Shown: positions 860-54,617 of the stretch, piece after piece
Layout: each line of letters starts with the position of its first letter
Numbering within the stretch: position 1 is the stretch's first letter
DNA from: an uncultured Christensenellaceae bacterium
GTDB lineage: Bacteria > Bacillota > Clostridia > Christensenellales > SZUA-584
Direction: 5' to 3'
DNA length: 64,000 nt
Assembly (NCBI GenBank): GCA_964441275.1
Contig: CAYTUG010000009.1
Location: 617-64,616, forward strand
Position numbers and translations under genes: made by a program
The notes under the pieces: model-generated
Database searches by the model: none
What the model was told of the DNA's origin: nothing
Seen by the model: only the letters and a program-made list of their open reading frames with translations

Positions 860-890
860 GCCGTTAAAGAAACTTCAAGGAGCCGGGCAC

Positions 891-1568: not shown

Positions 1569-1578
1569 GGAGGCGCTT

Positions 1579-2904: not shown

Positions 2905-2992
2905 CGGCGGCGTTATAAGCTGATTGGCAAATGCGTGAGAAACAAACACCGCAACGGTTAATTGCGCGTTTTTGTTTGAATCAAACGGGCTT

Positions 2993-3634
2993 TTATTCTA
3001 TTGCTCTTTTCGCTATCATCTCTTTGGTTTTCATAAGCCTGATAAGATTGCCCCGTTCGTTTTCGTCAAGTTTCATTCTGATGTATTTTATAGTTTCGAT
3101 TAATTGCGGTATCATCACGTATTCAAGAGCGTTTACCCTCCGCCGGGTTTTTTCAATTTCATCCGCCAATAAATTGCATGTTTTTTCAAGCTCGGCAAGC
3201 TCTATTAGTTTTGGCAACATTTGAGAAAGCTTATCCGTAGAGTGGTCAAGCTCTGCCGATGTATTCATCAAACCATAGGGGAAAAAGCTGCGTTCTTGTT
3301 TTTTTTCGGTATAGCTTATTTTTGGGACATCGACATTCATTATGTTTGCGCGCGATAAAACAACTTCCGCCTCGCGTATTGGGTAGATTAATGCCTCGTC
3401 CATAGCTTCTTTGCTCATCGCTATGCGTGCAAGCGCAAAACCGCGCAGCGCAAGCGTAAGAGACTCTTCAACAGTTTTACGCAGCTCTTTGTTCTTGCGT
3501 ATGAGCAACAAAAATATGCGCACCATTTCGTCGCGCTTGTCTTTTAAAAGTTTGTGCCCCCTTGAAGCAGTCGCCAATCGCTTTTTAAGCTTTGTAAGCT
3601 GCATCCTTGTCGGGTTTACTCTTAGCAGAGCCAT
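2993..3634 (-). CDS. ntpD: V-type ATP synthase subunit D
   Basis: N-terminus MALLRVNPTRMQLTKLKKRLATASRGHKLLKDKRDEM is typical of V/A-ATPase subunit D. Last gene of the operon. Confidence 0.9.
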   Translation of the reverse strand: MALLRVNPTRMQLTKLKKRLATASRGHKLLKDKRDEMVRIFLLLIRKNKELRKTVEESLTLALRGFALARIAMSKEAMDEALIYPIREAEVVLSRANIMNVDVPKISYTEKKQERSFFPYGLMNTSAELDHSTDKLSQMLPKLIELAELEKTCNLLADEIEKTRRRVNALEYVMIPQLIETIKYIRMKLDENERGNLIRLMKTKEMIAKRAIE

Positions 3635-3637
3635 ATA

Positions 3638-5017
3638 TTAATCCTCGTCCGCAGGCAAATATTTTTCAATATAGGCGTCGCTTATGCGCTTTAGTTCCGC
3701 CTTAGGCAAAATCTTTAGCAGCTTCCATCCTAAGTCTAACGTTTCCTCGATAGAACGGTTGGTTTCATACCCTTGCGAAACGTATTCGCGCTCGAAAGCA
3801 TCGGCAAATTTAGCATAAAGTTTATCAATATCTGATAAAGCCGCTTCGCCCAAGATAACGGAAAGCTCTTTAGCGTCTTTGCCGCGTGCATAAGCGGCGA
3901 ACAGCTGGTTCATGGTGTCCGCATGGTCTTCACGCGTTTTGTCTTTGCCAATGCCCTTATCTTTAAGCCTTGAGAGGGAAGGTAGCACATCAATAGGGGG
4001 CGTTAATCCCTTGCGCAGCAGCTCGCGGGATAATATTATTTGCCCTTCCGTAATATAGCCGGTTAAATCGGGTATTGGGTGCGTTTTATCGTCTTCGGGC
4101 ATAGAAAGAATAGGTATCTGGGTTACAGAGCCTTCCCTTCCTCTTATTCGCCCCGCCCGCTCGTACATAGTCGCTAAGTCGGTATAAAGATAACCGGGAT
4201 AGCCGCGCCTTCCCGGAACTTCTTTTCTTGCCGCCGATATTTCTCTTAACGCCTCGGCGTAGTTGGTGATATCGGTAATGATTACAAGAACGTGCAGCCC
4301 TTTTTCATAAGCGAGATATTCTGCAGCGGTTAACGCCATTCGCGGAGTGGATATACGCTCTATTGCCGGGTCGTCCGCAAGGTTTATAAACAAAACTGTG
4401 CGATCAATCGCACCCGTTTTTTTAAAGTCAGAAATGAAAAAGTCCGCTTCCGCAAAAGTTATGCCGACGGCGGCAAAAACTACCGCAAAACTTGCCTGGG
4501 TGCCCAAAACTTTTGCTTGACGCGCTATTTGTGCCGCAAGGTTTGCGTGGGGTAAGCCCGAACCGGAAAACACCGGTAACTTTTGTCCGCGAACAAGCGT
4601 GTTTAGCCCATCGATAGCAGATATACCCGTTTGAATAAACTCTTCCGGATAATCCCTTGCCGACGGATTTATGGGGGCGCCGTTTATATCCATTCGTTTT
4701 TCGGGTATTATTGCCGGTCCGCCGTCCATAGGTTCCCCCATGCCGTCAAAAACGCGCCCTAACATGTCGTATGATACGGCTAATTCAATACTTCGTCCTA
4801 AAAAACGCGCCTTGGATGTTGATATTTTCAAGCCCTGCGCGCTCTCGAAAAGCTGTACAAGCGCCTTGTCGCCGTCTATTTCAAGCACTTTTCCGCGGCG
4901 TATGTCGCCGTCCTGCTGAATAATTTGAACGAGCTCGTCGTATTTAATTCCGCTGACCCCCTCAACAAGCATAAGGGGGCCGACAACCTCGCTAATTGTG
5001 CGGTATTCTTTAAGCAA
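3638..5017 (-). CDS. ntpB: V-type ATP synthase subunit B
   Basis: Strong V/A-type B-subunit similarity throughout ([20 protein letters not shown]...). I prefer the TTG start at 5017, which gives the canonical MLKEYRT N-terminus and has a GAGGAAGGTGGA RBS. The ORF-track GTG at 5038 is the alternative. Confidence 0.9.
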
Positions 5018-6785
5018 TTTCAATTCCACCTTCCTCACAAAGCGCCGCTATCTGAGATTTTAGGCTTTCGCGTATATTTGCAAAATGTTCGGTTGCATTT
5101 TTTTCGTCTACATATTTGGCGCGGCCAATATCTTCTCTTATTGGCATGGCGGTTATTTTGGACAGGGGAGCGCCAGCGGCCAATGCGTTTTCTCCGAGTT
5201 CGCCCCACTCAAGTATTAAAGAAAGCATGCCCGCCTGTTTATTCAGCGAAGTATAAGTATCAGTTTGATGAAAAGCGTTTTGATGCAGGTAATCTTCGCG
5301 TATTGAACGGCAGGTTTCTAACTTTAAGCGGTCTTTCAAAGACAGCGCGTCAACGCCCACAAGGCGCACAATTTCTTCAAGTTCGGATTCCTCCTGCAGC
5401 AGTTGCATGGTTTTTGCGCGCAAAGCGTTCCATTGCTTGGACACGTTATCGTCAAACCATTCGTTCAGATTTTCGGTGTAAAGGGAATAAGAAGTAAGCC
5501 AGTCTATTGCAGGAAAATGGCGTTTGTAGGCTAACTGGTCGGACAATCCCCAAAACACTTTTACTATTCTTAAAGTAGCCTGTGAAACGGGTTCGGAAAT
5601 ATCGCCCCCCGGGGGGGATACTGCGCCTATTGCGGTTATCGCCCCTGTGCGGCCATCGGAACCGAGGGCTTTTACAATACCTGCGCGCTCATAAAACCCG
5701 GCAAGCCTTGAGGAAAGATAGGCCGGATAGCCTTCGTCCCCCGGCATCTCTTCAAGCCGTCCGGACATCTCGCGCAACGCTTCCGCCCACCTCGAGGTTG
5801 AATCCGCCATTACGGCGACTTTATAACCCATATCCCTAAAGTACTCCGCTATGGTTATTCCGGTATATATAGAAGCTTCCCGCGCCGCCACAGGCATATC
5901 GGAAGTGTTGGCGATAAGCACTGTGCGCTTCATAAGCGGTTCTCCCGAGCGCGGGTCTTTAAGCTCTGGAAACTCCATAAGAACGTCTGTCATTTCGTTG
6001 CCGCGTTCTCCGCAACCGATGTATACTATTATGTCGGCATCGGCCCATTTAGCTAACTGGTGCTGAACCACGGTCTTTCCGCTTCCAAAAGGGCCGGGCA
6101 CGGCGGCAACGCCTCCTTTGGCGATTGGGAAAAGAGTATCAATGACTCTTTGACCTGTTATCATCGGCTCGGCCGGGGGCAGTTTCTCGGCAAAAGGACG
6201 GCCAATTCGCACCGGCCATTTTTGCAGCATTTTGACTTCGACTGTTTCGTTTTTTGCCGTTTTCAGCTTTGCGATAGGCTCTACAATCGTTGCATTGCCG
6301 TCCGCAAGCCATTCTAATGTGCCCGAAACGCCGGGAGGCACCATAATAAAATGGCGTACCAACGTAGTTTCCTGAACATAACCTAAAAAGTCGCCCGGCG
6401 TTAGCATATCGCCCGCATTAGCCAAAGGCTTAAACTGCCACTCTTTGTCGTAATCAAGCGCAGGAGGGCTTATCCCGCGGCTTATTCGGTCTCCAACTAT
6501 CTCGTATATTTTATCAAGCGGGCGTTGTATGCCGTCAAATATAGAGGCGATAAGCCCGGGCGCAAGCTCAACCGACAGCGGATTATCGGTAGGATATACC
6601 GTTTCACCCGGCCCTAATCCGCTCGTTTCCTCATAGACTTGAATTGACGCCATCTCGCCCCTAAGCTCAATGATCTCTCCAATTAATTTCTTTTCGCTTA
6701 CTCGCACAACGTCGTATATTTTGCTGTCTTTTAGCCCCTTTGCTACTATCAGCGGACCGGAAACCTTAACTATCTTGCCTTCCAT
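5010..6785 (-). CDS. ntpA: V-type ATP synthase catalytic subunit A
   Basis: 591 aa. Walker [10 protein letters not shown] and typical V-type A-subunit sequence including the non-homologous insert region. Confidence 0.95.
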
Positions 6786-6804
6786 AACATACCCTTCCTG
6801 AAAA

Positions 6805-7116
6805 TTAATCGAGTAAAATATCTGCTCCTATTGCTTTTTCTACATTGGCGCGAATGCCCCGCATGCCAAAACCGGTTGCGCCTTGGTTTCCCGGAATGGG
6901 GATTATCACGGGGTAAGCAGAAGTTTTGTATCGATCTATAGCTTCTTGTGCACATTGCGCCGCATGTTCGGTAATAAAAATTATGGCATATCCGCCGTTT
7001 GCAAGCCGGTTAATAACCTGCGAAGCGTGTTCTTTGGGTGTAGGAAATATATCAATACCCAAAGTTTTAAAACCTATAATGCTGTCTAAATCGCCAACGG
7101 CGCCAATTTTGTTCAT
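6805..7116 (-). CDS. V-type ATP synthase subunit F
   Basis: About 103 aa ([25 protein letters not shown]...), located between subunits C and A. The internal ATG at 7116 avoids overlap with the subunit C stop. Confidence 0.8.
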
Positions 7117-7126
7117 GTTTTTTCCT

Positions 7127-8113
7127 TTATTGATAAAGCTGTTTAAGCCTTTGCATAACAATACCGGTATCTATTCCGCTTTGTTTTGCGCTCATCACCA
7201 TGCGTACCGCCGCCGCTTCGCGCTGTTTTGCGATATAATAGCCCATCAAAGGGCCGATTCCAAACAGGCCGAAACGGTTTTCACGCAGCAAAGACATAAG
7301 ATAATCATCACGCGCCTTTTCCAACATATATAAACTGCCGCCTTTTTGATAAACCGCAAACGCATCAAAGAGTATATGAGAATATCCTTTCGCCGCGGCT
7401 GCCAAAAAGCCATCATCCGCAATATCAAACGCATCCAACAGCATACGCTTGCTTAATTTGCCGCCTTTTAAATGAGCTCTGTCATAATAGGCTTTGCCTG
7501 CCGAGGCCGCCCGGACCCGCAAAAGAGCGATTATGTTTGTCAAATCGAAGAACGCTTGAAAATATTCGGTAACGAGCGCAAAGCCGAGCCGTTTAACTAA
7601 ACGCATAATATCTTTTGCATATGCTCTGTCAAGCGCAACTGCGACAATAGATGCATCGGGCGCGGCCGCAAGCTGATTGTCGATATAAGACAATGCTTCT
7701 TTCATAGGCAGAGGCAAATCAAAATACTTTTTGTCGGAAACTGCACGCGATAACCTTTCAACGCTTATATTACCTTGCTTTAAACCCGATGCGCTTGTGT
7801 TGCGCAAAGATAATTTAATAATCGATTTTAAGTTTTGATAATCCCGCTCGGTAAGCATAATTTGAATAAAAGTATCGTTGGGCGAAAGCGCCTTGATTAA
7901 AGAGTCCGTATTATCAAGCTCTTTTGAAATCAGCAGTTCAAAATCATTGTTTGATATGCCTTGTCCGTAACCTAATTCGGCTAAAGTTTTCATGGCGGCA
8001 TCAAAAGAATCCGCTTCGATAAGCCTTGAAAGTTTCTCTTTTGTAATTAACCGTTGCTCAAGCACTTTTATTCGCGCAAAAGCATACGGGAAACTGCTCG
8101 ATATCTGTGACAT
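7127..8113 (-). CDS. ntpC: V-type ATP synthase subunit C (eukaryotic d-like)
   Basis: 328 aa with N-terminus ...YAFARIKVLEQRLI, typical of the V0-d / A-type C family. Operon position between E and F. Confidence 0.85.
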   Translation of the reverse strand: MSQISSSFPYAFARIKVLEQRLITKEKLSRLIEADSFDAAMKTLAELGYGQGISNNDFELLISKELDNTDSLIKALSPNDTFIQIMLTERDYQNLKSIIKLSLRNTSASGLKQGNISVERLSRAVSDKKYFDLPLPMKEALSYIDNQLAAAPDASIVAVALDRAYAKDIMRLVKRLGFALVTEYFQAFFDLTNIIALLRVRAASAGKAYYDRAHLKGGKLSKRMLLDAFDIADDGFLAAAAKGYSHILFDAFAVYQKGGSLYMLEKARDDYLMSLLRENRFGLFGIGPLMGYYIAKQREAAAVRMVMSAKQSGIDTGIVMQRLKQLYQ

Positions 8114-8728
8114 TTATTCCCCTGCTAAGTTTTCTTCAAACAGTATTGCAGCAATTTGCGGCTCATGCTGCTGCCATATTTGCTCAAGCATAGACTCTAA
8201 CGAAACATCTATTTCTAATCCGCCGTCTATATATACAAAACCGCCCCGCATTTCCCGCTTCTGTTGCAGCAGCTTTACATTTCCTTTGCCTGTGGTTTTT
8301 TTCAGTTCACCGTTAACCCCGTTAACAAACGCGGCGTCTATTGCTTTTTCGCTGTTTGAAATTATTATTTCACCTTCGCCGTTTGCCGCGCATGCAAGCA
8401 AACGCTTTTTTAGCATCAACAAATAATCTTCTTTATTTAATGAGCTTAATTTCTCAAGAGCAAGTGACTTTGCTTGTTCCATAACTTGCTGTTTTGCCGA
8501 CAAAATCTGCTTTCTGTGCTCTAAATCAAAAATCGCTTCTATGCGCTTTTTATCTTCAATTACGGTTTGCTCAGCCGCGCGTTCAATCTCCGCCACCTGT
8601 TTCTGGATGATGCGGTTCGTTTTTTCGTTGATCTCGCGTTTTTTGCGCTCCGTTTCCTGGGCAACCTTTTCTGCGTCAAGTTTCGCGTCTGCAAGTATTT
8701 TGTCTATAAGTTTTTGTGCGCTAGCCAA
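8114..8728 (-). CDS. ntpE: V-type ATP synthase subunit E (peripheral stalk)
   Basis: 204 aa. Charged coiled-coil N-terminus (KLIDKILADAKLDAEKVAQETERKKREI...) and globular C-terminus. Position in operon. Confidence 0.85.
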   Translation of the reverse strand: MASAQKLIDKILADAKLDAEKVAQETERKKREINEKTNRIIQKQVAEIERAAEQTVIEDKKRIEAIFDLEHRKQILSAKQQVMEQAKSLALEKLSSLNKEDYLLMLKKRLLACAANGEGEIIISNSEKAIDAAFVNGVNGELKKTTGKGNVKLLQQKREMRGGFVYIDGGLEIDVSLESMLEQIWQQHEPQIAAILFEENLAGE

Positions 8729-8744
8729 TATTAATCACACCCTT

Positions 8745-9290
<546 letters not shown>

Positions 9291-11198
9291 TTAATTACTA
9301 ATTTTGTGGTGACGGGTGCGAAACGCCAAAGGCATAAACGCATGTCCGTCTCCTTCATAAAACTTATTAAAAAACTCTATATACTGCAGCCTTGCCGTGT
9401 GTACAAACGCTCCGAGCGTGTTTATTGCAATGTTAAACACATGGCCGAAGGTAAGAATTATTATACCCATAATATAACCTATAAAATTGCCCATAAGCAA
9501 CCCGCCAATGGTGTTAAACACCATAGCGATTACAGTGGTTGCAAGCCCCATTCCAAAAATCCGGCTGTAAGAAAGTATATCCCCTATATAGCTGGTAACT
9601 CCGTACAAACTCGCAAGCCCGCCGGTTATTTTTTTAATGACGCCTTTTTTATGCCTGCCTTGTGTAAACAGAAGAATAGCCGCTCCCGCAATTGTCAAGT
9701 ATGAGCCAATAGTGCCGATTACGCCGCCAAGTATGAGCATTATGCACCCGCTTATCAACAAGAACCATGAAAAACGATCAAAGACTGCATCAAGTATCCG
9801 TCCGCGGCGGATATCCATATACATGGCTATAAAAAGCCCGGTAAATATGTGTATTACCCCAACGCCAAGGCAAACGATAAGCGTGAGCATCGCACCCTGC
9901 GCATCTTGTATAGGATTAAGAACATATGGAATGCCCTCTATGCTAAGCACGGTCCCAAAGAAAACGCCCCAAAGAGAACCGGAAATTCCGCAAATCATAA
10001 TAACGGTGGTTATTTTTCTAAACATACCCGTCGGCTTTTTAATCTTAAGCATAAGGTATGCGCCAACGGTCAGCACTATACCGTAAACCACATCCGCCAT
10101 CATCATCCCGAAAATGATAAAATAAAATATAGACATAATTAAATTTGGGTCGAATCCGCGCGATGAAGGTATTGAATACATATCCGTTACCGCTTCAAAA
10201 GGGGTAACGGCCGGCGGATTGGATATCGCTGTGGGCGGTATTTCATCCTCGTAAGGGTTTCTAAAATTTATATAGGCTTCAGGCGCGGATTTTTTTAAAG
10301 ATTGTTCAATTTTATCGCAATCGTTTGAAATAACCCACCCTTCAAGAGCAAACGCCGCACCCGTTTCAGCCAGCCTTTCAACGCAACGCTCCCTTGCCTG
10401 TTCAGTGAGCAAATAGTCCTCAACCAAACATAGCAGGCTTTTATGCTGCGTAAACTCTTTAGCTTCTTTTTGCATTCCGGCCATCTTGTTGCTAATCTTG
10501 TCATGCTCTTTTTTATAGTCCGCTATGATATTTTTTGTTGTTCCAAAATAGTCCTTTGAGGGAGCATCGGTAAAGCCAAAGCTTTTCAGCTGAGCCCTTA
10601 AGAGTTCGCTGATATCGTTATGCGCAATAATGTACACCGCAAAAAGATTGCCGTCCGTTTTGGTATATTCCATGTAGGCGGTATCAAATTCTTCGCATAT
10701 TTGGTTTAAGTTTTGTTCATTCTCGAAAGGTATTGTGCCGAGAAAACTTGTTGTATATGCGCTTTCCCCTAATGTTTCAAGCGGGATATCGAAACAACCG
10801 AACGGCTCAAGCTGAGAAATTTGGTTCAAAATACGTTGCTGCCGCATTTTCAAAGCAGCAAAATCGGCGTTGTATTGTTTTATTTTATCCGCTATCTGTT
10901 GCGCTTCGTCTAACCGGGAACTTAACCCGCTAAGCTGTTTTATTGTGATGCCGGGCTTTGGGTTAAAGAAAGAACTTTTTTCGTCATCAAACCGACGTAT
11001 AGTTTCAAGCGCCGTGCGCACATCGGCAAGCATAGAATCAACATGCGCATACTTTTCGGAGCTAACGCCCGCCGCGGCGCCTTCAAACTGTGTGTGAGTT
11101 ACCTCAATTGCGCCTAATTCCTGTATACTTTTAAGAAGAGCGCTTTTATTATCCTGGTGGGCAAAAAGCGCAATTTTTTTCATCTCCAATATGGCCAT
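9291..11198 (-). CDS. ntpI: V-type ATP synthase subunit I (a-subunit homologue)
   Basis: 635 aa. Soluble coiled N-terminal half plus a polytopic C-terminal half ending ...ARLQYIEFFNKFYEGDGHAF, typical of the family. Confidence 0.9.
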   Translation of the reverse strand: MAILEMKKIALFAHQDNKSALLKSIQELGAIEVTHTQFEGAAAGVSSEKYAHVDSMLADVRTALETIRRFDDEKSSFFNPKPGITIKQLSGLSSRLDEAQQIADKIKQYNADFAALKMRQQRILNQISQLEPFGCFDIPLETLGESAYTTSFLGTIPFENEQNLNQICEEFDTAYMEYTKTDGNLFAVYIIAHNDISELLRAQLKSFGFTDAPSKDYFGTTKNIIADYKKEHDKISNKMAGMQKEAKEFTQHKSLLCLVEDYLLTEQARERCVERLAETGAAFALEGWVISNDCDKIEQSLKKSAPEAYINFRNPYEDEIPPTAISNPPAVTPFEAVTDMYSIPSSRGFDPNLIMSIFYFIIFGMMMADVVYGIVLTVGAYLMLKIKKPTGMFRKITTVIMICGISGSLWGVFFGTVLSIEGIPYVLNPIQDAQGAMLTLIVCLGVGVIHIFTGLFIAMYMDIRRGRILDAVFDRFSWFLLISGCIMLILGGVIGTIGSYLTIAGAAILLFTQGRHKKGVIKKITGGLASLYGVTSYIGDILSYSRIFGMGLATTVIAMVFNTIGGLLMGNFIGYIMGIIILTFGHVFNIAINTLGAFVHTARLQYIEFFNKFYEGDGHAFMPLAFRTRHHKISN

Positions 11199-20613: not shown

Positions 20614-21369
20614 TTATTTTAAACGTTCGTTTAGAGCGTTGTTAAATTGCTGCATGCAGCTATATTCAGCGGCGTAAGCTTTGCTGACGCTAAACTCATC
20701 TCTCTCGATAAGCGAATCGGCCTGAAAGCTGAACGCTTCGTTATCGCAAATTATTATATGATCTAAGAGGTCTATACCAAGAGTGTGCAAAGTTGATAGT
20801 ATATCCTGTGTTGTACGTATATCCGCGGACGAAGGGGAGACGCTGCCGCCCGGGTGGTTATGCGCTATAACACATTTTACGGCGTGATGCCGCAACGCCG
20901 CCGCCGCTATTTTGCCTAAATATACAGGAGATTCACAAACGCTGCCCTCGGAAAGCCGCTCGTAATGAATAACGCGGTTTTGTGTGTTGAGCCAAATCAT
21001 ATAAAACTGTTCAAAAGGTTTGCCGAAAAGAAGCGAACGCGCAAATTCGCAAGCGTCTTTAATTGAGATTATGGTTGGTTTTTTACCAAGCTTGCTTTGC
21101 TCGTAAGCGCGGAAAGCATGCGGGAACACGCTTAAAAAGGCCGAAGCCTTTTTGCCTATGCCGCTTATTTGCTCTAAGTCTTTCGGGTCGGCTTCAAGCA
21201 CGCCGGATAAGCTACCGAATTTTTTTATCAGCCTGTGAGCGATAGGATTTGTATCCACGCGCGGTAACGCAAAGAAAAGCAGAAACTCCAATATTTCGTG
21301 CTCGGCAAAGCTTTCAAAGCCTTCGCTCCCAAACCGGTTGATTAGCCTTTGCCTGTGACCTTCGTGCAT
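20614..21369 (-). CDS. radC: RadC-family JAB/MPN domain protein (UPF0758)
   Basis: MHEGHRQRL...HhH region (ISGIGKKAS) and a C-terminal JAMM-like HNHPGGSVSPSSADI. Confidence 0.85.
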   Translation of the reverse strand: MHEGHRQRLINRFGSEGFESFAEHEILEFLLFFALPRVDTNPIAHRLIKKFGSLSGVLEADPKDLEQISGIGKKASAFLSVFPHAFRAYEQSKLGKKPTIISIKDACEFARSLLFGKPFEQFYMIWLNTQNRVIHYERLSEGSVCESPVYLGKIAAAALRHHAVKCVIAHNHPGGSVSPSSADIRTTQDILSTLHTLGIDLLDHIIICDNEAFSFQADSLIERDEFSVSKAYAAEYSCMQQFNNALNERLK

Positions 21370-21617
21370 ATTGCCTCCGATATGTCAAAGTTTCATTTTG
21401 CGTTTGCGGTTTTCACGCTAAAACTAAAAAGCGGCATTGTGTCTCTCAATCAAGATAATATACTCGGCATGTTGCTAAAATTATACAGCCCGCCATTTTA
21501 CGCAGTGCGCTTGCCAACGCCTATGCCGGCGCAAGCCAATTACGAGAAACAGTTAGAATATTGCCTACCGTTATAATTATAACATGCGTAATCAATAAAT
21601 CAATCGCGCCGGTTTGT

Positions 21618-21646
21618 TTGACATGCAATAACTAACACTTTATAAT
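21618..21646 (+). promoter_or_regulatory. Consensus sigma-A promoter driving the candidate ncRNA
   Basis: TTGACA (21618-21623), exactly 17 nt, TATAAT (21641-21646). Both hexamers are perfect consensus. Confidence 0.7.
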
Positions 21647-21652
21647 CGGTTT

Positions 21653-21867
21653 TATGGCGGCGGGTCTGTGGTTGAAAGCCGATGCTAGCCGCGGGCGAAA
21701 CGGCCCACATAAGCCAAGGATACCTTGGCGAGCATGGCGCGGTTTAGAAGTTAGCCCGGCCGAAAGGTTTTTTCGAGAGGCAAAGTAGTGGGGAGGCTAA
21801 AGCCTTGTGAGCAAAATGCCCAGCCGGCGGATGTGGGGCAAAAGACCAGGTCAGCCGCCGCTTTTTT
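21653..21867 (+). ncRNA. Unclassified structured-RNA candidate (about 210 nt): stand-alone sRNA or long cis-leader
   Basis: GC-rich island in AT-rich intergenic DNA. 5' GCGGCGG (21657-63) pairs with 3' CCGCCGC (21855-61), followed by T6. Several internal GC hairpins have GAAA/UAAA loops. No credible ORF. Family not recognised. Confidence 0.55.
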
Positions 21868-21979
21868 CTTGTAATGTAACTTGCCCCGAATACAGATAAT
21901 ATATTTATCGTCAATAAGGTGTTATCGGGGTATGGTAAACCTATCGCATCAGTGGGCGCAAAAGAAACGGGGGGACATA

Positions 21980-23101
21980 ATGTTCGAAACAAAAATGCTG
22001 CTTAACGACAAACATGATTTGAAAAAATTTATTGATTTCGAGTTTGAACTGTATAAAGATGACAACAACTGGGTGGCGCCTTTGACATTTGACACAAAAA
22101 ATACCCTCTTAGGCAAAAACAATCCGCTGTTCGAAAACGGCGAACACGCTTTCTTTATGGCTTTTAACGATAAAATGCCCGTTGGCAGGGTACTTGTCGG
22201 GACGGATGAAAAGCTAAACAGAGAAAAAGGAATAAAACAGGGCTATTTTTCTATGTTCGAATGTATAAATGATTATTCAGCTTGCAAATTGCTGCTTGAT
22301 GTTGCGTGCGGATGGCTAAAAGACAAAGGAATAGATAATGTCATAGGCCCGCTTTCCCCCTCTAACGGAGACGATCGAAAAGGGTTTTTAGTTAAGGGTG
22401 AAGGGGTTGCCGTTTTGTTGAACGCTTATACGAAAGATTATTACCCTTTGCTAATCGAGAAATATGGGTTTGTTAAAAATGACGATCATTATGCGTATCT
22501 GTTTACAAAAGAAGATTTTAATTTAGAGCGGCACTGCAAGGCGGTTGAATATGCCAAAAAAAAGGGCGGGTTTCGCGTACAGAGATTGAATGCGAAAAAT
22601 ATTTTAGGCGAATCCAAAGATATTAAAAAAATACTTGACAACAGCGTTCCGGCCGAATGGGATTACCTTGGCGTTCCTACCTTGCAGGCGGTAATAGATG
22701 AGTTTAAAAGCCTTGCGCAGTTTTATAACGGACGATACTGTTATATTGTGCGCAAGGGAGTAAAACCTATTGCCTTTTTGGTTGCGCTGCCCGATTACAA
22801 TCAGGTGTTAAAGAAAATGAAAGGGCGCATATTCCCGTTTGGGTGGTTTAAATATTTGTATTACAAAGGCAAAATATCCGGTGTGCGGGCAATAGTGCAA
22901 ATGGTAGACAGGGGTTACCAGAACATGGGCGTCAATTATGCTATGTATTACGAATTTAATAAAGATCTGAATCAGACTGAAATAGAATATGTTGAGGCGT
23001 CGTGTATAGATGAGGTAAATACCGCATCAAGGTTAAGCGTCGAGCGTTTGGGCGGAACGCATTACAGGACTTATCGGACATACAGGTTAAGGCTTAATTG
23101 A
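21980..23101 (+). CDS. Hypothetical protein, probably a two-lobed GNAT/FemAB-like acyltransferase fold (373 aa)
   Basis: ATG 21980 lies 5 nt after GGGGGGA. Conserved-looking soluble protein. The family assignment is only my impression from sequence pattern. Confidence 0.6.
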   Translation: MFETKMLLNDKHDLKKFIDFEFELYKDDNNWVAPLTFDTKNTLLGKNNPLFENGEHAFFMAFNDKMPVGRVLVGTDEKLNREKGIKQGYFSMFECINDYSACKLLLDVACGWLKDKGIDNVIGPLSPSNGDDRKGFLVKGEGVAVLLNAYTKDYYPLLIEKYGFVKNDDHYAYLFTKEDFNLERHCKAVEYAKKKGGFRVQRLNAKNILGESKDIKKILDNSVPAEWDYLGVPTLQAVIDEFKSLAQFYNGRYCYIVRKGVKPIAFLVALPDYNQVLKKMKGRIFPFGWFKYLYYKGKISGVRAIVQMVDRGYQNMGVNYAMYYEFNKDLNQTEIEYVEASCIDEVNTASRLSVERLGGTHYRTYRTYRLRLN

Positions 23102-25668: not shown

Positions 25669-26097
25669 ATGAAAAATAAAGAGCAAGCTATTCTATTAAT
25701 TCTGTCGGTTTGTTTTTTTCTTATACTTGCTGCCTGTGGCGAAGCGGTAATAATTGAAACTTCTATCGGGAATTTTGAGTACAGCCAAGATTTTTTGCAG
25801 GAACTCGAGAGCGTTTCTTTGGATGCGGCGCTAACCCCTGCCCAAGGGAATATATTTCTATTAATGTATCTTACCCCTGCTGAGGGTACCGAGCTTTCGT
25901 ATGATTCGGCGGAACAGTATTTTCTTAACGGCACCAAGGCGCTCTTGCAGGGAAATACTTACGATATTTACTGTGTCGCTTTCGAGCGTATAAACAAGTC
26001 TAAAGAGCGTTTGGCGTTAGTGTTTGAGGTTGAAGATAAAGACTACGCAAATAAAAGCGAACAGCCGCAGCTGATTTTGCCTTCAGTCCCAAAGTGA
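25669..26097 (+). CDS. Putative lipoprotein
   Basis: Signal peptide with lipobox (LILSVCFFLILAAC|G). 142 aa, no family recognised. Confidence 0.6.
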   Translation: MKNKEQAILLILSVCFFLILAACGEAVIIETSIGNFEYSQDFLQELESVSLDAALTPAQGNIFLLMYLTPAEGTELSYDSAEQYFLNGTKALLQGNTYDIYCVAFERINKSKERLALVFEVEDKDYANKSEQPQLILPSVPK

Positions 26098-28596: not shown

Positions 28597-28752
28597 ACAA
28601 TATCAGCTTGTTAAGCTGTAAACTTTCTTAAATAAAAATGCACAGCTGAAAAAACAGCCGGAAAGAGCGGAATCGATTTTCGCTTCTTTTGCGACAAATT
28701 CTATTGCTTGTGGTACAATAACATTCAAATAACAAACAAATTTGAGGCGCGG

Positions 28753-30993
28753 ATGACAAGTATTGAAGGCACTGTGCTGCAAGTCAATTTTCGAAACGAT
28801 GAAAACGGCTGGACGGTGCTTGAAATTGATTTTAACGGTGCGTTGACCACTGCGGTGGGATGTTTACCGTATATTCATGAGGGCGAATATGTTCGCCTGT
28901 TTGGCGCTTGGACGGAGCATAAAATTTATGGCCGCCAGTTCTCGGTTAAAACGGTGCAAACGAGCCTTCCGAACACCAAAGAATCAATAAGCATGTTTCT
29001 TGCAAGCGGGCTAATAAAAGGCGTGGGCGAAGTGCTTGCGCAGCGCATTGCAGACGCTTTTGGCGAGCACACATTTGAGGTTATAGAAAACAGCCCCGAA
29101 CTTTTGGCGCAGATTAAGGGTATTAGCAAAAGGTTGTCGCTTAGCATAGCGGAAAGCTTTGCGGAGCATGTGGGCATCAGGCAAGTTGTGATTGAGCTTC
29201 AAAACATCGGCCTGTCTGTTAAGCAGGCTTTTCGTGCGATTGAAAAATACGGAGCTCTCGCCCCAACTTTAATTCGAGATAATCCGTATCGTATGATAGA
29301 CGACATTGCGGGCATAGGTTTTGAGCGCGCCGATAGGATTGCGGGCGCAATAGGCATAGAAAAAACGTCGCCTTTTAGGATTGACACCGGCATCAAGCAC
29401 GAGCTTTTATGCGCCATGAACAGCGGGCACACATGTTTACCGCGTCAAGAGCTTATCCGCCGGGCGGCAAAAACGCTCGGAATCAACGAAACTTTAATTG
29501 AAGCGCGCATATCGTCGCTTACGCTGTCCGAACAGATTGCGCAAAAGTTTATTGCGGGAACCCCCGCGGTGTTTCATATTGCCGCCTATATTACGGAATC
29601 CGATGTAGCGGTTAGGCTGTATACGCTCTCTTTGAGCAAGCCGCGCATACCGGTAAAAGACGCTGCGCATGCATATGAGCGCTATATCGGGAGTGAGCAG
29701 CTTTCGGAAGAGCAGGAACGAGCGGTGTTAACCGCACTGTCGGGGCAGGTTACGGTAATTACGGGGGGCCCGGGCACGGGCAAAACGACAATAATCAAAA
29801 CCATTTTAAGCATATTCGAGCAATGCGGTATTACAACCGCGCTTTGCGCGCCCACAGGCAGGGCGGCAAAACGCATAGAGCAATCAACCGGCCGCGAGGC
29901 AAAAACTATACATAGGCTTTTAGAATACGGGGTGGGCATACAAGAGGATTTCGACAATTCGGCACGTTTTATACGCAACGAAGACAATACGCTTGAGGCG
30001 GAGGCTGTTATTGTAGACGAGGCTTCCATGATAGATATCTTTTTGATGCGTGCGCTGTTGCGCGCAATGCCCGAAGGCGCGCGCTTAGTAATAGTTGGCG
30101 ATGCGGACCAACTTCCTTCGGTGGGGCCGGGGAATGTACTGCGGGACATAATAGCGAGCGGGGCTTTTGCCGTTTCACATCTGACTAAGTTTTATCGCCA
30201 GAAGGAAGGGGGCAGCATAGTTGAAAATGCGCACAGGGTTAACGGCGGGGAGCTGCCGGTGCTATATTTAACCGGAGATTTTGTTTTTATACCCGAAGAT
30301 GACCCCGAAGAGATTATAGAGCGTGTTAAAAGCATACTTAGGCAGCAAGAGATTGTTCAAAAATATGATGTGTTGGAGCATACGCAAATACTGTGCCCGA
30401 TAAAAAGAGGGGTGCTTGGGGTCTACAATCTAAATATGCGGCTAAGAGAAATGCTTAACCCGCGTTTAGCGTCTAAGCCTGAGGTTCAGGTTGGGGATAC
30501 GCTTTTTCGTGAAGGCGATAAAGTTATGCAGACCAAAAACAACTATGAAATGGAATGGTTTTATTCAGACGAAAAGCAATTTTACAGTAAAGGCACAGGC
30601 GTGTTTAACGGTGATTTGGGACGCATAATCAGCATTGATAACGATCTTAAGCAAACTACTGTGCGCTTTGACGGGAACAGGGACGCCGTTTATACTATTT
30701 CGGAATTAGAACAGCTTGAACATGCATATGCGGTCACGGTGCATAAATCGCAGGGGAGCGAGTTTCCCGTAGTTATATTGCCTCTAATGTCGGGGGGAGG
30801 CCATTTTTTAACCCGGAATTTACTTTATACAGCTCTGACAAGGGCGATGGAAAAAGTGATAATAGTCGGGCTTAAAAGCACTATAGAATATATGGTAAAC
30901 AACAATAAGATAAGGGGCAGATACACCACGCTTGACCATGAGATAACGGACCTAAAACAAGTTTTGGGGGCGGTTCAAAATGGGGGCGCTTAA
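28753..30993 (+). CDS. recD2: ATP-dependent RecD-like (RecD2) SF1 DNA helicase
   Basis: HhH region, Walker A GGPGTGKTT, DEASMID and C-terminal AVTVHKSQGSEF motifs. ATG 28753. Confidence 0.9.
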   Translation: MTSIEGTVLQVNFRNDENGWTVLEIDFNGALTTAVGCLPYIHEGEYVRLFGAWTEHKIYGRQFSVKTVQTSLPNTKESISMFLASGLIKGVGEVLAQRIADAFGEHTFEVIENSPELLAQIKGISKRLSLSIAESFAEHVGIRQVVIELQNIGLSVKQAFRAIEKYGALAPTLIRDNPYRMIDDIAGIGFERADRIAGAIGIEKTSPFRIDTGIKHELLCAMNSGHTCLPRQELIRRAAKTLGINETLIEARISSLTLSEQIAQKFIAGTPAVFHIAAYITESDVAVRLYTLSLSKPRIPVKDAAHAYERYIGSEQLSEEQERAVLTALSGQVTVITGGPGTGKTTIIKTILSIFEQCGITTALCAPTGRAAKRIEQSTGREAKTIHRLLEYGVGIQEDFDNSARFIRNEDNTLEAEAVIVDEASMIDIFLMRALLRAMPEGARLVIVGDADQLPSVGPGNVLRDIIASGAFAVSHLTKFYRQKEGGSIVENAHRVNGGELPVLYLTGDFVFIPEDDPEEIIERVKSILRQQEIVQKYDVLEHTQILCPIKRGVLGVYNLNMRLREMLNPRLASKPEVQVGDTLFREGDKVMQTKNNYEMEWFYSDEKQFYSKGTGVFNGDLGRIISIDNDLKQTTVRFDGNRDAVYTISELEQLEHAYAVTVHKSQGSEFPVVILPLMSGGGHFLTRNLLYTALTRAMEKVIIVGLKSTIEYMVNNNKIRGRYTTLDHEITDLKQVLGAVQNGGA

Positions 30994-31618
30994 TACCGTA
31001 TTTCCCGATATTCCGGTTTGTGTTGTATGCGGAATTGAAAAAGGGGTTGTCTCTCATACTTGTGCCAAGTGTTCCGATTCGCTCGAGCGGCTAAAAGCCG
31101 GGTGCATAAAAACGCAAGGATTAACGGCGCTTGTATCCTACCGGTACGAATGCGAAGCCGAAAGCTTAATTAAAAAGTATAAATATGATGGGGCAAGGTG
31201 GCTGAGCGCGTTTATAGCAAACAGTATAATGCGCACGGTCTTTGACGCGCATACAGAGTTTGATTTTATCTGTAATGTCCCGCTGCACAAGAAGAAACGC
31301 GCAAGCAGAGGCTTTGACCAGTCAGAGCTGATTGCGGCGCATTTAGCGCAATATACGGCAAAGCCCTATGTAAAGACGCTGGACAGGGTGCGCAATACGC
31401 CCACTCAAACAAAGTTAAGCATTCGGCAAAGGCAAAGCAATGTGGAAGGCGCATTTTCAGCGAATGCAATAAATGGGCATGTTTTGCTTATTGACGATGT
31501 GATAACCACCGGCGCAACCGTTGCGGAGTGTGCAAAGGCGCTTATGAAAGCGGGTGCAAAAAGCGTTAAGGCTGCTGCATTTGCTTATGCTAAGATAAGC
31601 AATGCGACAACAAATTAA
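30980..31618 (+). CDS. comFC: ComF family protein (ComFC, phosphoribosyltransferase fold with N-terminal zinc finger)
   Basis: CVVCG...CAKC zinc-ribbon and PRTase motif VLLIDDVITTGAT. Overlaps the recD2 stop. Confidence 0.85.
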   Translation: MGALNTVFPDIPVCVVCGIEKGVVSHTCAKCSDSLERLKAGCIKTQGLTALVSYRYECEAESLIKKYKYDGARWLSAFIANSIMRTVFDAHTEFDFICNVPLHKKKRASRGFDQSELIAAHLAQYTAKPYVKTLDRVRNTPTQTKLSIRQRQSNVEGAFSANAINGHVLLIDDVITTGATVAECAKALMKAGAKSVKAAAFAYAKISNATTN

Positions 31619-32910: not shown

Positions 32911-33010
32911 ATGCCCGAATTAACGCTGTTTCTTTATAATTGCGGAATATTATCGCATGTTTAACTATATATTTATTAAAGAAACGAGTGCAAAAAGAGA
33001 GGGTTTTAAC

Positions 33011-34519
33011 ATGAAAGTAAATAAAGAGACAATTAGGATGGAATCGGCTTGCCAGCCCGTTTTAAGCGAAAGCATAGTTGAAGGCAGGCTTTCTCCTCCT
33101 GAAGACAAAACGCAAATAGATAGAGTTTTGTTTGTTCAAGGGCGCATATATGTAAATGCCGAACCGGCCGAGGGCAAGGTGTTCATGGACGGGAACGTGG
33201 AATTTGGTGTTGTTTATGTAGGTTTGGACGGTGACATAGATTCTTTTGAGTCGGTTTCTGTATTTCGGCATACGGAAGATATGCAGGATGCGGGCGCAGG
33301 CATGAACATATGGGCGCACGGCACTGTAAAAGAGATATCTTTTAGCGTTGAGGAAGGCAGGATTGTAATAGTTAAGGGAATTGTATCGGTGCAGCTAAGC
33401 GGCAGCATGACAAAAAGCTGCGAAGCCATAACGGGCGTGGAATCTGAAGAGCTGCAAACAAAAGCAACAAGCTTAAGGCTAAGAGCAACCCGGGAACAGC
33501 GCAAGGAAACAGTCTATATTCGCGAGGATGTGCGGGTGCCCCAAACTATGCCGGTTGCAAGAAAAGTGTTGTATGCGGACGCATACGCAATAGTGCGCAG
33601 CGTGCGCACCGAAGAGTTGAAAGTTGTAGTAGAAGGCGATATTAAACTGTCGGTGCTCTATTTATCGGCGGATAAAAAAGCACCGTTGCAACACATGTGT
33701 GAAACGATGCCGTTTGGGCAAATTGTTGCCACGGAGGGAATAGCCGAAGGCGATATCATTATTGCCGATGCGTTGATGTCCGATGTGCGGGTAGATATGG
33801 CTGACGAAGCCGACGACATACTGCGCCTGTCCGCGCGGGTTATCATATCATACGCTGCAAAAGCGGAAACACAGGTGCGGTATATTGAGGATGCATATTC
33901 AATGCAAAACAGGATTGACATAGAGTATGACAGCCAAACATGCAAAGAGACGGCTTTTGCGGCAAATGCGCGAGCTGCTGCCAGAGCCAATATTACCATT
34001 CCAACTTCACAGCCTGCCGTATCGCGGGTAATATGTTTAAAGGCAACGCCAAACATTGCCTCTGTGCGTTCCGGTATAGACCGCATATATATAGAGGGGC
34101 TGATGATGTTTACCATGTGCTATTATTCTTCTGAAGGCATGTGGAGTTTTTCGGGCGAGACACAGTTTGAAGCGGAAGTTACGGTGGGGGGGCTAAAGCC
34201 TGAGCATGACGTGCAAATTTGGGCGGATGTGGAGAGCTGCACTTTTGACGGAACAGGCAGGGACATAAGCGCAAAATTTATGATGGATGTAAAGGTTAGC
34301 GCATTTGAACAAACAAAATTGAACATAATGTCCCAAATAGCGAAGACGGGCGAGCGTTTGCCGGCGCGCCGCGGAATTACTATTTATTTTGCCGATGAAG
34401 GCGAAAGCATATGGGATATTGCAAAACGCTTTGCGATAACGCTTGAGAGCGTTGAAAGGTTTAACCCCAAAATAAGCGGTCCTGCAAAGGCGGGACAAAA
34501 AATTCTGTTAATGGGTTAA
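33011..34519 (+). CDS. SipL-like spore coat morphogenetic protein (DUF3794 repeats plus C-terminal LysM)
   Basis: 503 aa. The C-terminal LysM (ITIYFADEGESIWDIAKRFAITLESVERFNP...GQKILL) and the repetitive beta-rich N-terminal region match the architecture of clostridial SipL as I know it. Confidence 0.65.
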   Translation: MKVNKETIRMESACQPVLSESIVEGRLSPPEDKTQIDRVLFVQGRIYVNAEPAEGKVFMDGNVEFGVVYVGLDGDIDSFESVSVFRHTEDMQDAGAGMNIWAHGTVKEISFSVEEGRIVIVKGIVSVQLSGSMTKSCEAITGVESEELQTKATSLRLRATREQRKETVYIREDVRVPQTMPVARKVLYADAYAIVRSVRTEELKVVVEGDIKLSVLYLSADKKAPLQHMCETMPFGQIVATEGIAEGDIIIADALMSDVRVDMADEADDILRLSARVIISYAAKAETQVRYIEDAYSMQNRIDIEYDSQTCKETAFAANARAAARANITIPTSQPAVSRVICLKATPNIASVRSGIDRIYIEGLMMFTMCYYSSEGMWSFSGETQFEAEVTVGGLKPEHDVQIWADVESCTFDGTGRDISAKFMMDVKVSAFEQTKLNIMSQIAKTGERLPARRGITIYFADEGESIWDIAKRFAITLESVERFNPKISGPAKAGQKILLMG

Positions 34520-39870: not shown

Positions 39871-40641
39871 TTATGCGCTTCTGTCGATAATAAGCTTGTC
39901 TGCCATAAGCGCAATAAATTCGCCGTTTGTAGGTTTATCGTTATTTGTGTATATATTATATCCGATAAAGGAATTAATATTTTCAATTTTACCGCGAGAC
40001 CAAGCGACTTCTATGGCATGTCTTATAGCGCGCTCAACTTTGCTTGCGCTTGTATCAAACGGTTCCGCAATGCCCGGATACAGCTTTTTTGTTATTGCAT
40101 TGATAAGATCGGGGTTTTTTACCACCATCTTAATAGCTTCTCGCAAAAAGTGATATCCTTTAATGTGCGCGGGAATGCCTATAGACAAAAATACAGCAGT
40201 GATTTTTTCATCTAAAGTTCTTGAACGCACAGGCAGGGGCGAGCGTTTAGTAGAAATCACTCTGCCGCCAAACATATCTTGCAGCCGTTTGTATAGTATG
40301 TCTTTGTTAAACGGCTTTATCATGTAGTATTTTGCCCCAAGATCGCACGCAAGCTTTACCATCTTTTCGTTGCCAACTGCGGAAACTACAATAATCGCGG
40401 GCATATTTTCAAACTCTGAAGTGTTTAACCTTTCAAGCAACGAAAGGCCGTCCGCCTCCGGCATTATCATATCCACAATCAAGGCGTCGGGAGACAGCTC
40501 TTTTATTAAACCCGCCGCCTCTACAGGATTATTACAGGACCCCACTACTTCTACGTCATTCTTAGTGTTAAAATATTTTGTAAGCATGTCATTTAACTGT
40601 TCGTTGTCTTCGATGATTAGCAACTTAATCTTTTTGTCCAT
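39871..40641 (-). CDS. spo0A: Sporulation master regulator Spo0A
   Basis: Receiver domain (LLIIEDN...DALIVDMIMPEADG). The Spo0A-specific effector domain includes the diagnostic GIPAHIKGYHFLREAI and SKVERAIRHAIEVAW helices. Confidence 0.95.
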   Translation of the reverse strand: MDKKIKLLIIEDNEQLNDMLTKYFNTKNDVEVVGSCNNPVEAAGLIKELSPDALIVDMIMPEADGLSLLERLNTSEFENMPAIIVVSAVGNEKMVKLACDLGAKYYMIKPFNKDILYKRLQDMFGGRVISTKRSPLPVRSRTLDEKITAVFLSIGIPAHIKGYHFLREAIKMVVKNPDLINAITKKLYPGIAEPFDTSASKVERAIRHAIEVAWSRGKIENINSFIGYNIYTNNDKPTNGEFIALMADKLIIDRSA

Positions 40642-40885: not shown

Positions 40886-41737
40886 TTATAAAGCGTCCGC
40901 ATTTGCGTGCAAACTTTCCTTTAACCTTGTTTCAAGGCTCTTTAAATCAAGGTTTCCCGCCTCGGGCAGCGAAGCCTTAATAATAGAAAGCTGATCGAAT
41001 AATGTGTTGACTTTTATGTTTTTTTCAATTTCTTTTTTCAACCGGTTGCTAAGAATGGCGTTTTCTTTTCTCAGACTTTCATTTTGGCCAGAAACCTCGT
41101 CTATTTCTTTTTCTATCTGCTTGTTTATAACCGCCAGTCCCGCAATTTTTGAAAGCCCTTTAAAAAAACTTTTAACATCAACATCGGATGACATCAAAGT
41201 ATTTACTACAGTTTCGGGGATAAAGCGATTCTCTTTAGTTATAAATGCGGTTGATTTATGAGTTTCATAAGGATTTATATACTTCTCGCCCTCTTTATCC
41301 ATGTCCGCCATAACCTTTTCAATTAGCTGTCTGCCGTTTTTTATTAGGCTTCTGTATTTGTTTTGATATCTGAGCATTAACGTTTTATCGCCGTTTGCAA
41401 GCTTCAAACTCGCACCCCTTATAGATTCGCCGTTTGCCGCCGCGCCAAGCAGTGTGCGAAGCAGCATATAGATTTCTTCTTTTGTAAACGGTGTGAAAGT
41501 TGAAGGTTTCTGCACAATATCGCCCGTTTCTTTAACTTTCATGTAATAATAGTTTCTTACGCTGTTTGGCTTGCGTCCTGTTTTGCGCGCTACCGTTTCA
41601 AAAACGCGCTTAAGCGGTGCGCCAATCTTTTGGGCATTTTTGATTTCGTCCCAAAGCATTAGTTTTTCGTCGTCTTTCCAGCCCGTTCGAAGTGTTATTT
41701 CGAAATTGTTAAGGCCCGTCTCGCTGTTCATATCCAT
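40886..41737 (-). CDS. RsfA-like regulator: tandem Myb/SANT-like DNA-binding repeats plus C-terminal coiled coil
   Basis: RTGWKDDEKLMLWDEI...KTGRKPNSVRNYYY (Myb-like W/aromatic spacing), a second weaker repeat, and a C-terminal heptad region (QNESLRKENAILSNRLKKEIEKN), as in B. subtilis RsfA. Confidence 0.5.
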   Translation of the reverse strand: MDMNSETGLNNFEITLRTGWKDDEKLMLWDEIKNAQKIGAPLKRVFETVARKTGRKPNSVRNYYYMKVKETGDIVQKPSTFTPFTKEEIYMLLRTLLGAAANGESIRGASLKLANGDKTLMLRYQNKYRSLIKNGRQLIEKVMADMDKEGEKYINPYETHKSTAFITKENRFIPETVVNTLMSSDVDVKSFFKGLSKIAGLAVINKQIEKEIDEVSGQNESLRKENAILSNRLKKEIEKNIKVNTLFDQLSIIKASLPEAGNLDLKSLETRLKESLHANADAL

Positions 41738-41949
41738 ATTACCTACCCCTCATAGATTTTAATGTATATTATTCTCTTATAGCATTCTATTTAAACCGTG
41801 TTTTAACAAAAATATTAAAGCAAACATAAAATCCGTTTGCTTTTGTAAACTGTATATATTTATCTGTATATAAATATGCTAAGTTAAGGCCTGTTAGAAT
41901 TGTGTATCAGTTACCGCACTGCCGAATATACTTAAAAAGGGGACTAAAT

Positions 41950-54553: not shown

Positions 54554-54617
54554 ATGTTAGCAATACTAATGAATAAAGTTTTTCTTTATTCGATATTCTT
54601 TTTACAGGAGAATGAAA

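Follow-up and report, generated by a model that had tools for sequence, protein, structure and literature searches.

What is the GC-rich island that separates radC from the gene for a 373-aa protein in this contig of an uncultured bacterium? The window (the whole stretch of DNA that was analyzed, 64,000 nt) had been given an initial annotation that proposed an “orphan” RNA at this site, possibly of a new class: a discrete, stable, structured noncoding transcript of ~210 nt with its own sigma-A promoter, 5′ and 3′ ends that pair with each other, and a T6 tract. The positions given for the promoter, the end repeats, the T6 tract, the internal hairpins, a second CGGCGG, radC, and the 373-aa ORF were all confirmed, the sequence strings in a re-examination of 21300–22200. 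The compositional contrast also holds: GC content is 59% within the RNA, and 200-nt windows have values of 0.525–0.53 in the island versus 0.375–0.46 in the flanks. The locus is identical to a contig in the Logan assembly of run SRR8925785, and the RNA is present as a single copy in the window. The best explanation for the whole set of observations, held with high confidence, is that 21655–21863 on the + strand is a raiA-motif (ModT) noncoding RNA gene that has its own SigA promoter and acts in trans.

The identity of the RNA is established primarily by homology. An Rfam 15 scan of the whole window matched RF03072 (raiA RNA) at 21655–21863 (+), covering the entire model (positions 1–209 of 209) with a score of 181.4 bits (gathering score, 101.3 bits) and an E value of 3.7e-46, and a local scan of 21300–22100 confirmed the match (E 4.6e-48). 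In a permissive Rfam scan of 21300–22100, no family besides raiA was matched at E ≤ 1, including 6S RNA and the Clostridiales-1 motif. A full-length copy of a known family that also has its own strong promoter must be a real structured RNA and is not a new class. The “orphan” label is therefore withdrawn; the raiA motif, which the initial annotation had listed among several open possibilities, is the right family. Could the island nevertheless be an uncharacterized structured-RNA class, or a 6S-like or Clostridiales-1-like RNA? This reading is vanishingly improbable. Nothing favored it once it was tested, the initial annotation having simply been made without tools, and the full-length RF03072 match together with the lack of matches to 6S RNA, Clostridiales-1, or other families in 21300–22100 argues against it. 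The RNA does share general features with 6S RNA, SRP RNA, RNase P RNA, and tmRNA, namely a strong promoter of its own and paired 5′ and 3′ ends, and homologous raiA RNAs are likewise very abundant and stable; however, it matches none of the models for those RNAs and its architecture is different. Thermodynamic folding alone is not significant: the minimum free energy of the single sequence is −86.3 kcal/mol (z = −1.66), 11 of 200 shuffled sequences fold equally well, and the pseudoknotted core is misfolded in the predicted structure. The predicted fold was left out of the evidence, and significance comes from homology and covariation rather than from folding energy. The locus is an ordinary, already known type of member of a well-studied family.

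Covariation among relatives provides independent support for the structure. A genome-wide search with the pattern GGTCTGTGGNNGAAAG returned 120 loci. A filter on a second motif left 38 of these as raiA RNAs; the others were chance 14-mer matches in other phyla and were discarded. A metagenome scan supplied further raiA sequences. The window sequence and 25 relatives from Clostridia, Negativicutes, and Actinomycetota were aligned with MAFFT (alignment A2, n = 26), and the published raiA architecture was imposed on the alignment. Bases were paired in 94.3% of 1622 cells, and 39 of 65 pairs changed on both sides (260 cells). None of 500 shuffled controls reached these values, and controls in which the structure was slid along the alignment had only 31%–44% of cells paired. 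The covariation in relatives that the initial annotation had put forward as a check is thus present for the family structure and, together with the full-length RF03072 match, backs the proposed ~210-nt noncoding RNA as discrete, stable, and structured. The window sequence agrees with 98 of the 102 columns that are at least 90% conserved in the 25 other members, and its four departures (C25/G49, U32, and A177) all preserve pairing: a U-A pair in P3a becomes C-G, a C-G pair in P3b becomes U·G, and a U·G pair in P4 becomes U-A.

How does the RNA fold? In what follows, nt 1 of the RNA is 21655, all elements are on the + strand, and the roles of elements are those assigned from cryo-EM by He et al. 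2026 (PMC12968392). The ends of the RNA form a three-segment closing stem, P1, with the expected GU and GGU bulges. P1a pairs 21655–21663 with 21855–21863 (nt 1–9 with 201–209) through seven Watson-Crick pairs, one G·U, and one U·U, and in eight of its nine pairs, both bases vary among the family members in A2. Within it, GCGGCGG at 21657–63 is exactly complementary to CCGCCGC at 21855–61, so the earlier claim that the transcript ends pair in a closing helix is upheld. The GU bulge at 21664–65 (nt 10–11), located from the RF03072 alignment, is followed by the 5′ strand of P1b (CUG, 21666–68, pairing with CAG at 21852–54) and the 5′ strand of P1c (UGGUU, 21669–73, pairing with GACCA at 21844–48). 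On the other side, the RF03072 alignment and A2 place the 3′ strands of P1c, the GGU bulge (21849–51, nt 195–197), P1b, and P1a in succession at 21844–21863, with P1a being CCGCCGCUU at 21855–63. P1b and P1c are invariant in A2. The tetraloop-like GAAA junction that follows P1c is at 21674–77 (nt 20–23); U19-G20-A21-A22-A23 (21673–77) is likewise invariant in A2. A proposed extension of the end helix, in which GGUCU (21663–67) pairs with AGACC (21843–47), clashes with the solved P1a-GU-P1b-GGU-P1c arrangement (PMC12968392) and is given up on that ground; the columns concerned are all invariant or nearly so, meaning that pair counts are no test of this helix.

The P3 hairpin (21678–21704) comes next. 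P3a (GCCG/CGGC, 21678–81 with 21701–04) is separated by an asymmetric, A-rich internal loop (AU/GAAA) from P3b (GCU/GGC, 21684–86 with 21694–96). Pairing is complete (100% of cells) in both helices, each of which has pairs with both bases changed, and the window has a compensated C-G pair where the family has U-A. The apical loop of P3b contains the 5′ strand of pseudoknot 1 (PK1), GCCGCG at 21688–93 (nt 34–39), which pairs with CGCGGU at 21738–43 (nt 84–89) through five Watson-Crick pairs and one G·U. Family-wide, PK1 forms in every cell (100%), and three of its pairs change on both sides in A2. Its 3′ strand belongs to a longer pseudoknot strand defined from A2 (21735–21743) that begins with U81 and G82 of PK2 (21735–36) and G83. 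P4 pairs CCACAU at 21705–21710 with AUGUGG at 21831–21836 (nt 51–56 with 177–182) in 99.4% of cells; here, the A at 21831 accounts for the conversion of the usual U·G to U-A.

The remaining elements are peripheral hairpins and a single-stranded linker. P5 (GCCAAGG-AUA-CCUUGGC, 21713–21729, nt 59–75) has six aligned pairs, all of which change on both sides. The linker UUAGAAGUUA (21744–21753, nt 90–99) fits the family consensus UUAGA(C/A)GUAA at 9 of 10 positions and is a putative binding site for KhpA-KhpB. P6 (21756–60 with 21823–27, nt 102–106 with 169–173) is paired in 100% of cells, the P7 hairpin (21761–75, nt 107–121) in 95%, and the base of the P8 arm (21779–21820, nt 125–166, with its tip at 21794–805) in 95%, and many pairs in P6, P7, and P8 change on both sides in A2. 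P8 has an E-loop-like internal loop (AGUA/AAA) that retains the 5′ AGUA, with a 3′ side of AAA rather than GAA, a base position at which other members vary as well. The P6-P7-P8 domain with a P8 E-loop characterizes a subtype that accounts for 68% of raiA RNAs, and the RNA described here belongs to the subtype that lacks P2 and has P6-P7-P8.

Not all of the helices drawn by eye correspond to elements of this structure. Four internal hairpins had been proposed, and two of them are correct: the hairpin at 21713–29 is P5, and the one at 21794–805 is the tip of P8. The other two are no better than shuffled controls. GGGC/GCCC at 21693–706 forms in 57% of cells, and its bases belong to P3 and PK1; GGCC/GGUU at 21758–69 is paired in 45% of cells, and its bases belong to P6 and P7. 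A switch-like alternative pairing of the second CGGCGG (21825–30) also finds no support: its bases pair in 55% of cells, and covariation does not exceed that of the controls. Taken together, the alternative helices (GGUCU/AGACC, GGGC/GCCC, GGCC/GGUU, and CGGCGG) are paired in 64.9% of cells, which is indistinguishable from shuffles.

Comparison with the raiA/ModT family (RF03072; Weinberg 2017, Soares 2024, Lence 2024, He 2026) thus reveals a full-length covariance-model match and a common set of features: the bulged P1a/b/c stem, the GAAA junction, P3a/P3b with the A-rich loop, a 6-bp PK1, P4, P5, P6-P7-P8, a UUAGAnGUnA linker, and a SigA promoter that starts transcription at P1a. The Clostridium acetobutylicum RNA, Ca-raiA (204–205 nt; cryo-EM PDB 9ELY and others), is of the same subtype, with no P2, a short P7, and P8, and its numbering of U19, G20, A21, A22, and A23 coincides exactly with that of the window RNA. 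In contrast, the peripheral stem sequences and the genomic context differ between the two, and a sequence identity of only ~60%–70% is expected.

Is the RNA also conserved among close relatives that share its genomic position? Contigs encoding four homologues of the 373-aa protein were fetched (loci L169–L175). Each carries a raiA RNA according to Rfam, with five complete copies scoring 184–196 bits and two copies that are interrupted by a contig end scoring 146 and 166 bits. The window locus was aligned with five of these syntenic relatives (alignment A3), which are probably Christensenellales. The window promoter consists of a −35 hexamer, TTGACA (21618–21623), and a −10 hexamer, TATAAT (21641–21646), with a 17-nt spacer; it matches the consensus at 12 of 12 positions and is the sole perfect site in a promoter scan of 21300–22100. 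The −35 hexamer is TTGACA in four of the five relatives and TTGACT in L174, and TATAAT is present in all five, 6–8 nt ahead of model position 1, while the sequence of the 17-nt spacer is not conserved. Sequence identity in A3 is 82%–85% within the RNA and falls to 27%–46% immediately past P1a. The retention of the hexamers and the end of conservation after P1a indicate that the RNA gene is driven by a promoter of its own and that its transcript starts at P1a. The position of the −10 hexamer agrees, with a predicted start at ~21653–21655, essentially the first base of P1a. The sigma-A promoter had been correctly identified in the initial annotation.

The same relatives bear on whether the region encodes a small protein. 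Two candidate ORFs do exist in the window, a 44-aa sense ORF from the ATG at 21654 and an 82-aa antisense ORF at 21744–21992, and public gene callers place ORFs of 55–57 aa on the RNA in L172 and L173. These calls are spurious. The sense ORF has no start codon in L169 or L172; in L171 it ends after 25 codons, and in L174 a frameshift interrupts it. Neither the length nor the sequence of the antisense ORF is conserved among the five close relatives. Moreover, the hairpin loops contain indels whose lengths are not divisible by three, and substitutions are compensatory for base pairs. A small protein is extremely unlikely, in agreement with the earlier view that no protein is encoded, given that starts, frames, and lengths are not conserved in the five relatives.

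Does the RNA regulate the gene downstream of it? RF03072 still has the Rfam type label “Cis-reg; riboswitch”, and the RNA could be a cis-acting leader (a riboswitch or attenuator) of the downstream GNAT-like gene, with P1a and the U6 tract acting as a conditional terminator. There is some evidence consistent with this idea. The 373-aa gene (21980–23101, +) is co-oriented with the RNA, its start codon is 117 nt past the RNA end, the promoter scan gives no other plus-strand promoter between the two, and U6 directly follows a GC-rich stem. The adjacency is also retained in four relatives (L169, L170, L172, and L173), in which the RNA is ~130 nt upstream of the gene. However, the adjacency is broken in two lineages in which the RNA and its promoter are intact: in L171, inserted genes for a 260-aa protein and an MFS transporter separate the 373-aa gene from the RNA, and a blaI/blaR1-like pair takes this place in L174/L175. 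In both cases, the 373-aa gene has promoter-like upstream sequences of its own. A search for a conserved promoter of the 373-aa gene was unconvincing, yielding just a short GATAATAT motif common to three loci. These insertions argue against a cis-regulatory role and fit an abundant RNA that acts in trans.

Evidence from other species points the same way. Two knock-out studies demonstrated complementation in trans, in C. acetobutylicum and C. difficile (PMC10861870, PMC11706538), which makes a cis-regulatory role unlikely for the family. The 373-aa gene is absent near the other raiA loci that were searched, where comFC is the upstream neighbor instead, and the alternative pairing that a switch would need is without covariation, its 55% of paired cells not exceeding controls. 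The RNA resembles riboswitches and other cis-acting leaders in being highly structured, in having pseudoknots, and in having a U-tract after a stem. Unlike those elements, it has no conserved expression platform or supported alternative fold, its downstream gene is not conserved across the raiA family or even within the clade, and members of the family complement in trans. Overall, a cis-acting leader is very unlikely at this locus. By extension from these other species, the RNA probably acts in trans rather than on the neighboring gene.

What might a trans-acting raiA RNA do in this bacterium? The window contains the sporulation genes spoIIR, sleB/ypeB, sipL, and spo0A; the host is a spore-forming Clostridia bacterium, probably of the Christensenellales, which fits the Bacillota or Actinomycetota host expected for raiA RNAs. 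In other species, raiA/ModT RNA resembles a housekeeping RNA, and its abundance and stability rival those of rRNA and tRNA, with levels peaking in exponential growth in C. difficile and in the transition to stationary phase in C. acetobutylicum. Deletion mutants reach stationary phase late, and they sporulate and aggregate less. Specifically, the very abundant raiA RNA was found to be required for normal sporulation and aggregation in a knock-out study that included complementation in trans (PMC10861870). C. difficile ModT is transcribed from a SigA promoter, is linked to c-di-GMP, and can be replaced across species by orthologues from other clostridia; its deletion raises c-di-GMP, and its role is exerted partly via c-di-GMP levels (PMC11706538). 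The same role would be expected to hold in the spore-forming host described here.

The proposed sequence of events is as follows. The RNA would be transcribed from the consensus sigma-A promoter (21618–46) with a start at ~21653–55, and transcription would end in or near the U-tract at 21862–67. It is predicted to fold with a long, bulged P1a-P1b-P1c stem projecting from a compact core of P3a/P3b, P4, and the two pseudoknots, with P5, P6-P7, and P8 likely to form peripheral arms. The folded RNA probably works as a ribonucleoprotein or a ligand-binding scaffold; biochemically, members of the family may be scaffolds, ligand sensors, or ribozymes. Cryo-EM has revealed a compact monomer in which the conserved 10-nt linker is the only long exposed single strand, and this linker has been proposed as the KhpA-KhpB binding site (PMC12968392). 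Reports on this interaction disagree: KhpA-KhpB bind raiA RNA in vitro with a Kd of ~2 uM, with binding by the heterodimer (PMC12968392), whereas KhpB did not bind in C. difficile (PMC11706538).

What does this locus add to our understanding of raiA RNAs? The family has been known since 2017, it is in Rfam, several cryo-EM structures and two knock-out studies are available, and any Rfam-based annotation would flag the locus, so little is added to what is known. Its value is contextual: it represents a lineage in which a raiA RNA with a conserved consensus promoter is located away from comFC and hpf, a U-tract is fused to the closing stem, and a recurrent variant of the PK2 linker is present. 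This context could help work on the biochemical function of raiA/ModT RNA.

First, the genomic position differs from that of a typical raiA/ModT gene. The divergent upstream neighbor is radC (20614–21369, −; PF04002, E 8e-35; NF000642, E 1e-48). The 373-aa protein encoded downstream has no Pfam or NCBIfam match; it belongs to a family of ~375-aa proteins, most of which lack annotation. The closest named homologues come from Christensenellales MAGs, and more distant ones carry PF00583 (GNAT). comFC is upstream of the raiA RNA in 74% of members (Soares et al., PMC10861870), and at 40 other raiA loci, a comFC homologue immediately precedes the RNA. Homologues of radC, the GNAT-like gene, or other neighbors were detected at none of the other raiA loci searched. 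In the window, the nearest equivalent is a comFC-like gene that is 9 kb from the RNA (30980–31618, +; TIGR00201, E 9e-35, below the curated cut-off), and no hpf/raiA gene was found among ORFs of at least 110 aa. The hpf/raiA side of the typical locus is present in 66% of members, and the comFC-hpf setting as a whole is typical rather than defining. With comFC 9 kb away, no hpf, and flanking radC and GNAT-like genes, the RNA occupies a lineage-specific, non-canonical position of a kind that the literature already allows for; this position is conserved in the Christensenellales-like relatives.

Second, the 3′ end of the gene is unusual. Typical raiA/ModT genes have a separate terminator hairpin, whereas here a T6 tract (21862–21867, +) directly abuts P1a and is the putative 3′ end or termination site. 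Other members have a separate hairpin terminator (e.g., L171) or run into the next gene, and for Ca-raiA, one RNA isoform has been reported and no intrinsic terminator is predicted near the 3′ end. A simple terminator scan found no hairpin terminator in the window locus; the scan requires a loop of 3–8 nt and is therefore blind to a closing stem with a 190-nt “loop”. Since U6 directly follows P1a, the closing stem may double as the terminator stem, in line with the initial annotation. The U6 tract abuts P1a in L172 as well, but the arrangement is rare family-wide, being present in 3 of 76 sampled 3′ flanks. The promoter scan of 21300–22100 detected no promoter-like site between the RNA and the 373-aa gene, making read-through possible.

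Third, in addition to the AAA of the P8 E-loop, the RNA differs from typical members in PK2. The linker between P4 and P1c, which carries the 3′ side of PK2, reads GGCAAAAG (21837–21844) where the consensus is GGuCAAAG. PK2 retains its U81-A187 pair, but G82 faces A186 rather than C, and pairing of G82 with C185 requires a 1-nt shift in register. With GGCAAAAG in place of GGuCAAAG, G82 thus has no canonical C to pair with in the usual register of PK2. In A2, the pair between G82 and column 229 forms in 20 of the 26 sequences, and the window is not among them.

Could these departures be connected? One speculative and rather unlikely scenario combines them. The raiA gene would have relocated from a comFC-hpf locus to the radC/GNAT-like locus, where P1a and U6 would serve as an unconventional intrinsic terminator. 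Because this terminator would leak, production of the downstream GNAT-like protein would become tied to the very strong ModT promoter, and a register-shifted or non-canonical PK2 would be tolerated.

The PK2 linker itself varies considerably. Among the relatives, it is GGUAAAAA in L169, GGUAAAAG in L172, and the canonical GGGCAAAG in L171 and L174. Exactly GGCAAAAG is also found in 47 metagenome contigs, some of which carry P2-bearing RNAs of a probably actinobacterial type. Its recurrence indicates that GGCAAAAG is a tolerated natural variant, and the notion of a PK2 “defect” peculiar to this locus was dismissed.

The gene 3' of the raiA RNA encodes a 373-aa protein (window 21980-23101, + strand) that has no match in Pfam or NCBIfam. 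It is a member of a well-populated family of ~375-aa proteins (320 matches), most of which are without annotation, and matches to GNAT (PF00583) are present in more distant members of this family. In every relative examined, rsmG/gidB is convergent with the 373-aa gene. What lies between the raiA RNA and this GNAT-like gene differs among the contigs of syntenic relatives: in L171, a 260-aa ORF and an MFS transporter gene are inserted (1177-4001), and in L174 and L175 the insertion is a Penicillinase_R/Peptidase_M56 (blaI/blaR1-like) pair (189-4001). The site 3' of the raiA RNA appears to be tolerant of gene insertion.

Could the RNA locus itself encode a protein? Public gene calls place ORFs of 55-57 aa on top of the raiA RNA in two of the relatives (L172, 3676-3849; L173, 3-170). 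These protein predictions are spurious, because their reading frames are not conserved. On the other side of the RNA, facing radC, is a promoter-like site on the − strand (window 21576-21603; TTGATT and TATAAT separated by 16 nt, with a TG extension), such that this site and the raiA RNA promoter are arranged back to back. A sequence block spanning the −35 element of the divergent site, ATAAATCAA, is conserved in the relatives L169 and L172.

At 40 other loci, comFC is immediately followed by the raiA RNA. The window has a comFC-like gene (30980-31618, +), found directly 3' of a recD2-like helicase gene (28708-30993, +) whose end it overlaps; there is no raiA RNA directly 3' of this comFC-like gene, and an aminotransferase gene comes next instead. 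Elsewhere in the family, the raiA RNA of an Actinomycetota MAG (L070, 1878-2103, −) has A in place of both G82 and C186, placing A opposite A in pseudoknot 2; the G and C of this pseudoknot are retained in a close relative, L096. The A-A combination reflects either an error in the MAG or a pairing loss that the RNA tolerates.

In the window, ARAGORN predicts a tRNA-Leu(GAG) gene (46892-46975, +), neighboring a tRNA-Ala(GGC) gene (47427-47503, −), and a local Rfam scan scores the former at 43.6 bits versus a gathering score of 29. Nonetheless, tRNA-Leu(GAG) is absent from the output of the 'gathering' cmscan run on the whole window. Hence, fast cmscan filters can miss true matches in a 64-kb run.

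Four other sizeable ORFs in the window have no Pfam or NCBIfam match (25669-26097, 142 aa; 40886-41737, 283 aa; 41902-42999, 365 aa; 52442-53503, 353 aa); the position of homologues of the 142-aa ORF is kept in syntenic relatives. Sporulation genes (spoIIR, a sleB-like hydrolase gene, ypeB, sipL, and spo0A; 281-2904, 32957-34519, and 39871-40641) mark the host as a spore-forming member of the Clostridia. The window also carries a V-type ATPase operon (2993-11198), bcd-etfBA (54612-57855), and a bacterial serpin gene (48519-49772, −; PF00079, E = 4e-84), which adjoins a gene for a Big_14 Ig-like domain protein (49912-50367).
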